From the IMG/VR virus record IMGVR_UViG_2869947659_000010: a DNA stretch of 18,637 nt. One strand, 5' to 3'. The position numbers are program-made. The DNA is from a virus (Duplodnaviria; Heunggongvirae; Uroviricota; Caudoviricetes). Shown here one piece after another: positions 18,001-18,637 of this stretch. Every line of letters starts with the position of its first letter. The stretch's first letter is position 1.

Positions 18001-18637
18001 AAACAGTATTAAGGGTGAAGGAAAGTGATTTTTTGGGGCATGCATGGGGCAAAAATATTTGTTGTGGGGCATTTTGGGGCATGATTGGGACACTTTGTTA
18101 CATATGAACTTTGCCGATTTTTATATGACATGGAAATACAATGCTTTGATTCTTCTAAATAAAAAACATGCTCTTGGGCGTTCTTTAGTGATTTTTAAAA
18201 ATTCCGTATCACGCAGTTAAAGTGGCGGGCATACTCTTCAAGGCTGGTGATCCCCAACCGCACCCATTTAGGATGCGACCATTGCGGTAGACCGATGTAA
18301 ATCATAACGCGTGAAGGATCTCTTCCACGCTACGCACACGGGCGATGCGCGGGTAGATATGATTAATGCTGTTATTGTGTTGCTCGGCGCTGGCGGCACT
18401 ACAGGCGTCTTCGGCAATCACCAGATTAAAGCCAAGTTCCCAGGCATTGCGGGCGGTGGATTCAACACCGATATTGGTCGAGATCCCACATAACACTATT
18501 GTATCGATACCTCGGCGGCGCAGTTGCAACTCCAGATCCGTACCGTAAAACGCACCCCACTGACGTTTGATGATTTCGATATCACTGTCAGTTGCACCTA
18601 ATGCAGCTGGATGTTGCCACCAGTTTTCGGGCAACAC

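Follow-up and report, generated by a model that had tools for sequence, protein, structure and literature searches.

Which protein, if any, reads a tight cluster of short direct repeats at the edge of a tailed-phage genome? The window analyzed here is an 18,637-bp stretch of a virus of the Caudoviricetes (IMG/VR record IMGVR_UViG_2869947659_000010). When both strands are counted, it contains the word TGGGGCA exactly four times, all within 48 bp, followed by a fifth copy with one mismatch (TGGGACA, 18086-18092). Along the plus strand, positions 18034 to 18092 run TGGGGCA tgca TGGGGCA (13 nt) TGGGGCA ttt TGGGGCA tgat TGGGACA, and the start-to-start spacings of 11, 20, 10, and 11 bp place the five sites on roughly one face of the helix. 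These counts and coordinates agree with an earlier sequence-only reading, which had reported four exact copies and one variant. The total number of copies in the window is at chance level (4 observed, with a mean of 4.35 expected); it is their clustering that exceeds chance, in that at least four copies within 60 bp arose in none of 20,000 shuffles and three copies in only two of them. Nor is the motif similarly dense elsewhere in the genome, a possibility that the sequence-only reading had itself raised: the word is rare outside att sites, with three copies in 49 kb of a related prophage and its chromosomal flank, one of which is the site at the other prophage end. The five sites, under the labels argued for below, are as follows.

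18034 to 18040, plus strand: putative arm-type site 1, TGGGGCA, first of the distal pair, 181 bp left of the core center
18045 to 18051, plus strand: putative arm-type site 2, TGGGGCA, which completes the distal pair and starts 11 bp after the start of site 1
18065 to 18071, plus strand: putative arm-type site 3, TGGGGCA, additional to the two pairs and starting 10 bp ahead of the proximal one
18075 to 18081, plus strand: putative arm-type site 4, TGGGGCA, first of the proximal pair, a pair kept in all attP and attR sequences examined
18086 to 18092, plus strand: putative arm-type site 5, the TGGGACA variant, second of the proximal pair

The array is located between the tail-fiber/dinI region and the chromosome junction; as first described, it lies beyond two LexA boxes and before the isochorismatase-family gene yecD, and the coordinates of its neighbors are these.

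17699 to 17947, minus strand: DinI-like prophage gene
17963 to 17978 and 17991 to 18006: two perfect LexA boxes (CTGT-N8-ACAG), upstream of the DinI-like gene
18210 to 18220, plus strand: att core, the 11 bp CACGCAGTTAA common to attR, attL, and attB, at the prophage/yecE junction
18221 to 18305, minus strand: what is left of the yecE 5' end (its first 28 codons or so), on the chromosomal (B') side of attR
18302 to the end of the window: yecD, isochorismatase-family hydrolase

The right part of the window is matched by all 5,426 complete Escherichia coli genomes, and those that are prophage-free match from 18210 onward only, with yecE directly preceding yecD. Because the match to the empty site begins only at 18210, the array is phage DNA, 118 to 176 bp inside the junction. 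The comparison with an unoccupied allele that the sequence-only reading had proposed thus bears out its suggestion that the array may mark the prophage end, and not its alternative of ordinary chromosome conserved in prophage-free strains: everything to the left of 18210 is missing from those strains, and the array sits close to the right prophage/yecE junction. Judged by this comparison, the window closes with the right-hand junction of a lambdoid prophage that has inserted into yecE, where Stx phages are known to integrate (PMC8112680). The core was defined by comparing the attR of the window, the attL of the prophage of O104:H4 strain FDAARGOS_349 (locus L003), and the empty site, and the record of phiP27 annotates the identical 11 bp as attR. 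We infer a 7-bp overlap, CAGTTAA, with flanks that form imperfect inverted core-type sites resembling CCCKYCAYG. TGGGGCA is absent from the core region (CCGTATCACGCAGTTAACATGACGGG), and the motif of the array differs from the core-type sites.

The window does not include its own attL, and the left prophage end is represented here by that of the O104:H4 prophage, a near-identical element that matches the window at 99.3% over its last 1 kb. There, the gene for a 436-residue tyrosine recombinase runs into the core; because int lies at that other end, the array, with sites starting 129 to 181 bp from the core center, occupies what lambda nomenclature calls the P arm. The 3' end of the O104:H4 int gene (L003, 32074-32091) holds TGTCCCAATGATGCCCCA, the reverse complement of TGGGGCATCATTGGGACA, and TGGGGCATCATTGGGACA is the counterpart in this arm of the proximal unit of the array (TGGGGCATGATTGGGACA, window 18075-18092). 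This P' unit lies 70 to 81 bp from the core, in the same orientation as the P-arm sites. A search for the motif at the other prophage end, also proposed from the sequence alone, was thus positive, with the motif inside the integrase gene of the O104:H4 prophage. When the attR of the window is joined to the O104:H4 attL, the resulting attP has seven sites, starting at -181, -170, -150, -140, -129, +70, and +81 from the core center, all in one orientation. Phage PhiR49_2 carries an integrase (99.5% identical) and a P arm (99.5% identical) of the same kind at the two ends of its record. The O104:H4 integrase has the Pfam domain Arm-DNA-bind_2 (PF12167) at its N terminus (residues 7 to 70, E = 1e-23) in addition to the Phage_integrase catalytic domain, and the gene upstream of int encodes a Pfam DUF1233 excisionase.

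We conclude that the repeats are probably arm-type binding sites of the prophage tyrosine integrase, located in the P arm of attR in yecE, and we place the probability of this reading at roughly 0.8. The kind of element is already known, arm sites of heterobivalent tyrosine integrases being textbook knowledge. Four of the six features that define such sites were found here, that is, a location in the arms, presence on both arms, a motif unlike the core, and an integrase with an N-terminal arm-binding domain.

The argument draws much of its weight from a comparison of eight joined attP sequences, namely, those of the present phage (built from the window attR and the O104:H4 attL), Yersinia phage vB_YenM_210.17 (from its record ends), CharmingMan, the Klebsiella phage RothC, the 933W-like Stx2 phage I, IdasGreatGrand, SaltyDalty, and Fraca. 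The cores of these attPs differ, with at least four distinct sequences among the eight. All eight nevertheless carry pairs of the form TGGGGCA-N4-TGGG(G/A)CA, one to three of them on the P side and a single one on the P' side, in one orientation; the members of a pair are 11 bp apart on both arms, and the last site of the P arm lies 192 to 200 bp from the first site of the P' arm. The site pairs are the sole invariant blocks in the alignment of the eight. Over 37 sites from seven attPs, T-G-G-G-(G/A)-C-A is invariant while the flanks vary, and TGGGGCA and its subwords are the only 5- to 7-mers that occur at least twice in each of six attPs, each of them at least four times. The Yersinia phage vB_YenM_210.17 has the standard motif on both arms; the record of the Rac-type phage stops short at its P-arm end.

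The number of P-arm sites varies from phage to phage: five in the present phage, four in phiP27 and CharmingMan, six in the 933W-like phage, and two in RothC, IdasGreatGrand, SaltyDalty, and Fraca. The distal pair has equivalents in phiP27, CharmingMan, and the copies in phi80 and mEp237 (a fossil att site, described below), all of which keep both the distal and the proximal pair, and the counterparts of site 3 are degenerate (CGGGACG in phiP27 and TAGGACG in CharmingMan) or absent (phi80). In OkiPb01696, also at yecE, the P arm is so diverged that megablast aligns it only from window position 18170, yet it has three sites at 11-bp spacing. In the 933W-like Stx2 converting phage I (AP004402, 31543-31612), the arm pair forms three tandem 31-bp units, giving its six P-arm sites; the record annotates these repeats merely as "arrangement gg; region III."

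The P' pair can be followed through the integrase family, which includes the integrases of 933W and VT2-Sakai (at wrbA), VT1-Sakai, and phiP27 (at yecE), with those of the Stx phages 68 to 76% identical to the present one, and, at 43%, IntR of Rac. In each of 28 full-length chromosomal relatives of the integrase (53 to 89% identity; from Citrobacter, Kluyvera, Enterobacter, Klebsiella, Raoultella, Pantoea, Edwardsiella, Erwinia, and others, with several insertion sites and downstream host sequences), the pair lies 20 to 60 bp before the int stop codon. Within the int frame, it encodes a C-terminal A-P-x-(M/V/L)-P-(H/Q). Rac-type relatives (42 to 45% identity; also phage 666R9) have a frame that ends earlier, with the pair placed behind the stop codon; since the pair is kept beyond the stop codon in these members, the constraint acts on DNA. 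On this pattern of conservation, the P' pair inside int is a DNA site that dictates protein sequence. More distant members have variant pairs, with TGCCCCG twice in Yersinia, TGTCCCC and TGCCCCC in Vibrio, and GGTCCCA twice in Halieaceae. Among 120 viral contigs with an exact TGGGGCA-N4-TGGGGCA, 68 have an integrase homologue whose 3' end is no more than 300 bp from the pair, mostly less than 60 bp, with the pair in the expected orientation. A scan of viral contigs with the integrase itself returned solely near-identical, end-truncated prophage contigs, none of them with diverged arms for comparison. Among seven phages, identity is 73 to 92% in the integrase N-terminal domain, 60 to 84% in the remainder of the integrase, and 51 to 86% in Xis. 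That the N-terminal domain is the most conserved fits a protein whose N-terminal domain reads an invariant arm motif and whose C-terminal domains track different cores.

The interval between the array and the core holds three further elements.

18106 to 18125, plus strand: two tandem 10-bp units, GAACTTTGCC and GATTTTTATA, on the core-proximal side of the proximal pair (tentative)
18139 to 18151, minus strand: candidate IHF consensus match, WATCAANNNNTTR (CAATGCTTTGATT on the plus strand), in the array-to-core interval
18170 to 18186, plus strand: block GCTCTTGGGCGTTCTTT, about 25 to 45 bp left of the core, conserved in seven of the eight attPs though the cores differ

Tandem repeats of 10 to 11 bp and the conserved block GCTCTTGGRCGWTCTTT are present in the alignment of the eight attPs. 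The tandem units at the equivalent place differ by phage, being GAAGTTCGTT and AAAGTTCGTT in SaltyDalty and Fraca and AAGAACGTAT and AAAGAACGG in the 933W-like phage. We tentatively regard the units at 18106-18125 and their equivalents in relatives as candidate sites of the excisionase, that is, of the recombination directionality factor (RDF). The identity of Xis and the type of tandem repeat did not covary cleanly among the phages compared. The block at 18170-18186 may be a protein site, perhaps for a host factor or for Xis. The IHF consensus was matched in the present phage only and in none of the six other attPs scanned.

The excisionase also supplies the rival explanation that deserves the most attention, in which the TGGGGCA repeats themselves would be sites of Xis and not of the integrase. 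RDFs bind direct repeats about one turn apart (PMC7498355). Immediately before int, all relatives checked carry a small Xis-like open reading frame (ORF), the one in O104:H4 being the DUF1233 protein, and Xis is moderately conserved across the compared phages. In the lambda paradigm, Xis sites are confined to a single arm, where they lie between the core and the arm sites of the integrase; the present motif occurs on both arms, and no conserved element lies farther out. Moreover, the arm-binding domain of the integrase needs a target and the attPs share no other repeated word, and the phage-specific tandem repeats beside the proximal pair make better candidates for Xis sites. We therefore consider it unlikely that the repeats belong to Xis. 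Phyletic pattern did not discriminate between Int and Xis, as a Xis-like ORF stands beside int in every relative. The Xis of Gifsy-1 is, in our judgment, an unrelated excisionase.

Three readings that look to other functions of the locus fare worse. The array begins 28 bp past the end of the second LexA box, upstream of the divergent dinI-like gene, and attP likewise has a DinI-like gene beside it in CharmingMan, SaltyDalty, and Fraca, so that the repeats could be activator or repressor sites of an SOS-controlled promoter. The same pairs, however, are found in RothC, the 933W-like phage, and IdasGreatGrand with no adjoining dinI, and every relative has the motif again at the 3' end of int; it follows int and att rather than dinI, and a regulatory element of this promoter is very unlikely. 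The repeats might instead be a by-product of coding, since a 58-codon ORF (18044-18220, plus strand), corresponding to hypothetical protein L58 of phiP27, spans the whole P arm. The phiP27 record annotates it as a gene, and the frame that ends at the TAA of the core is open for 51 to 64 codons in the window, AVS0151, OkiPb01696, phiP27, and phi80. This frame is cut to 24 to 25 codons in the intact attPs of CharmingMan and RothC and is interrupted also in PPompW; between the window and phiP27, amino acid identity (counted on the translations) is 62% against 75.6% nucleotide identity; and the spacings of 11, 20, 10, and 11 bp put the copies in different frames, with the first site outside the ORF. 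From these features, we judge the ORF to be non-coding, and an origin of the repeats in its coding function is highly improbable. As for the label "iteron-like" in the sequence-only reading, which had also offered repressor and replication-initiator sites as options, it is favored only by the overall appearance of direct repeats that are short and helically phased. In a related prophage, the replication and immunity genes lie 20 to 30 kb away and are without the motif, which is found at both att arms instead, and the neighbors of the array are a dinI-like gene and the chromosome junction and not an initiator gene or origin. Since the motif follows int and att and not the replication or immunity module, we give replication iterons or immunity-repressor sites hardly any chance. 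What does stand of the earlier proposal is the cooperative protein-binding array, for which integrase arm sites had been listed first: in every relative examined, the motif tracks int and att.

We thus favor arm-type integrase sites. The location, conservation, both-arm distribution, and fixed geometry of the sites and the domain content of the integrase were observed directly in the sequences compared, and a mechanism can be proposed by analogy with lambda. We infer that the N-terminal domain of the integrase is the binder and that the individual sites have the roles set out here. The C-terminal domains of the integrase would bind and cut the core at 18210-18220, while the small N-terminal domain would bind TGGGGCA 130 to 180 bp away on the P arm and 70 to 81 bp away on the other arm. 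One protomer could then hold an arm site and a core site together, and bending proteins bound in between would fold the att DNA into a complex that performs integration (attP x attB) and, with excisionase, excision (attL x attR). The 11-bp pairs would seat two integrase N-terminal domains side by side on one face of the helix, and one pair per arm would offer four arm sites to the four protomers of the recombinase tetramer. The minimal layout seen in relatives would accordingly be one pair per arm, to which the P arm of the present phage, with two pairs and one extra site, would add. We speculate that the extra distal pair and the fifth site provide added cooperativity or, by analogy, a division of labor between integration and excision like that of P1 and P2 in lambda.

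The likeness to lambda extends to several features of the layout. As in the attP of lambda (P1, P2, P'1, P'2, and P'3), the sites of the present phage are short, lie on both arms, are unlike the core, and have neighbors about one turn apart; the order of P arm, core, P' arm, and int is the same, and the lambda integrase is likewise heterobivalent, with a small N-terminal arm-binding domain. The differences are also clear. The arm sites of lambda lie 55 to 140 bp from the core, and the P-arm sites of the present phage are further out, at 129 to 181 bp. In lambda, P1 and P'1 to P'3 share one orientation and P2 is inverted, whereas none of the present sites is inverted. The motif itself is TGGGGCA in place of C/AAGTCACTAT, and the layout consists of 11-bp pairs, minimally two plus two, with a fixed gap of 192 to 200 bp, compared to two plus three sites in lambda. 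Unlike in lambda, the P' pair usually lies inside the int reading frame in the present family. The N-terminal domain belongs to a Pfam family (Arm-DNA-bind_2) unlike that of lambda, and no sequence similarity between the two N-terminal domains could be detected: hhalign against the lambda Int N terminus gave no detectable similarity, profile searches of the domain against solved structures gave no match, and a Foldseek search against the PDB for likeness to lambda Int gave nothing significant.

Closer to the present phage, the 933W-like Stx2 phage I shares both the arm motif and the layout, and phiP27 shares the 11-bp core and the array. The E. coli prophage module KplE1 (CPS-53) reportedly has another integrase and another insertion site (argW), with arm sites that are said to overlap the int promoter and to autoregulate int. 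Arm-type and directionality-factor sites of its IntS/TorI system have been mapped in attL and attR (PMC2951348). For the att sites of the Stx phages, PMC8112680 defines the cores only. In a literature search to which older subscription literature was closed, we did not find a description of the motif or the layout for the family of 933W, VT1/VT2-Sakai, phiP27, and Rac IntR, nor anything relevant that combined yecE or 933W with arm-type sites or the motif with attP. In the records and papers that could be searched, only cores are defined for these phages.

A broader claim, which we put forward tentatively and hold to be doubtful as yet, is that TGGGGCA pairs are a universal arm "address" for the whole PF12167 family, independent of insertion site and of a design unlike that of lambda. 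Such an address would be shared by the Stx phages 933W, Sakai, and phiP27 and by many enterobacterial prophages, with a near-variant in Rac, and the intasome of the family would rest on one 11-bp pair per arm, two plus two sites in one orientation and about 196 to 200 bp apart, to which some phages would add P-arm pairs. If this were true, the integrases of coresident prophages, as in EHEC strains with multiple prophages, could occupy each other's arms; given a common arm code and different cores, they could help or hinder each other's excision. Apart from this broader claim, the sites described here offer a concrete, testable definition of the functional att site in a very common family of integrases, to which those of the medically important Shiga-toxin phages belong. 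For engineering, the geometry indicates that a functional attP would need about 270 bp (from about -190 to about +90), beyond the core alone.

The motif pair may also serve as a sharp marker of true prophage ends, one that flags fossil att sites as well, as in phi80, mEp237, and PPompW. Phages phi80 (JX871397, approximately 23200-23530) and mEp237 carry a fossil attR of the yecE type about 1.2 kb from their own attP. In it, an intact array of four TGGGGCA sites is found together with a dinI-like gene, the core CACGCAGTTAA, and a piece of the 5' part of host yecE, which in phi80 is annotated as a DUF72 pseudogene. This fossil was presumably left behind when an ancestor excised aberrantly. The fossil attR of PPompW (PPompW_132418, LC567822, locus 1000-1260) has decayed sites (TGGAACG, TAGGGCA, TGGGACA, and TGGGACG) beside a preserved yecE-like core and flank, a pattern that suggests that its arm sites decayed when unused. 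According to PMC8112680, Stx2a phages use internal attB sequences of this kind to integrate into prophages.

Some further observations concern the surroundings of the array. At 80% coverage or more, the whole window is found in none of the 5,426 complete E. coli genomes (the best match has 76% coverage and 96% identity), and its tail region and att end together appear to be a mosaic absent from this collection. An integrase bound to the array could in principle influence the SOS promoter of the DinI-like gene. The annotation of the O104:H4 lysogen shows yecE as an intact DUF72 gene (L003, 32119-32889) that starts in phage DNA about 38 bp before the core, and the prophage there seems to supply a replacement 5' end to the gene that it interrupts.
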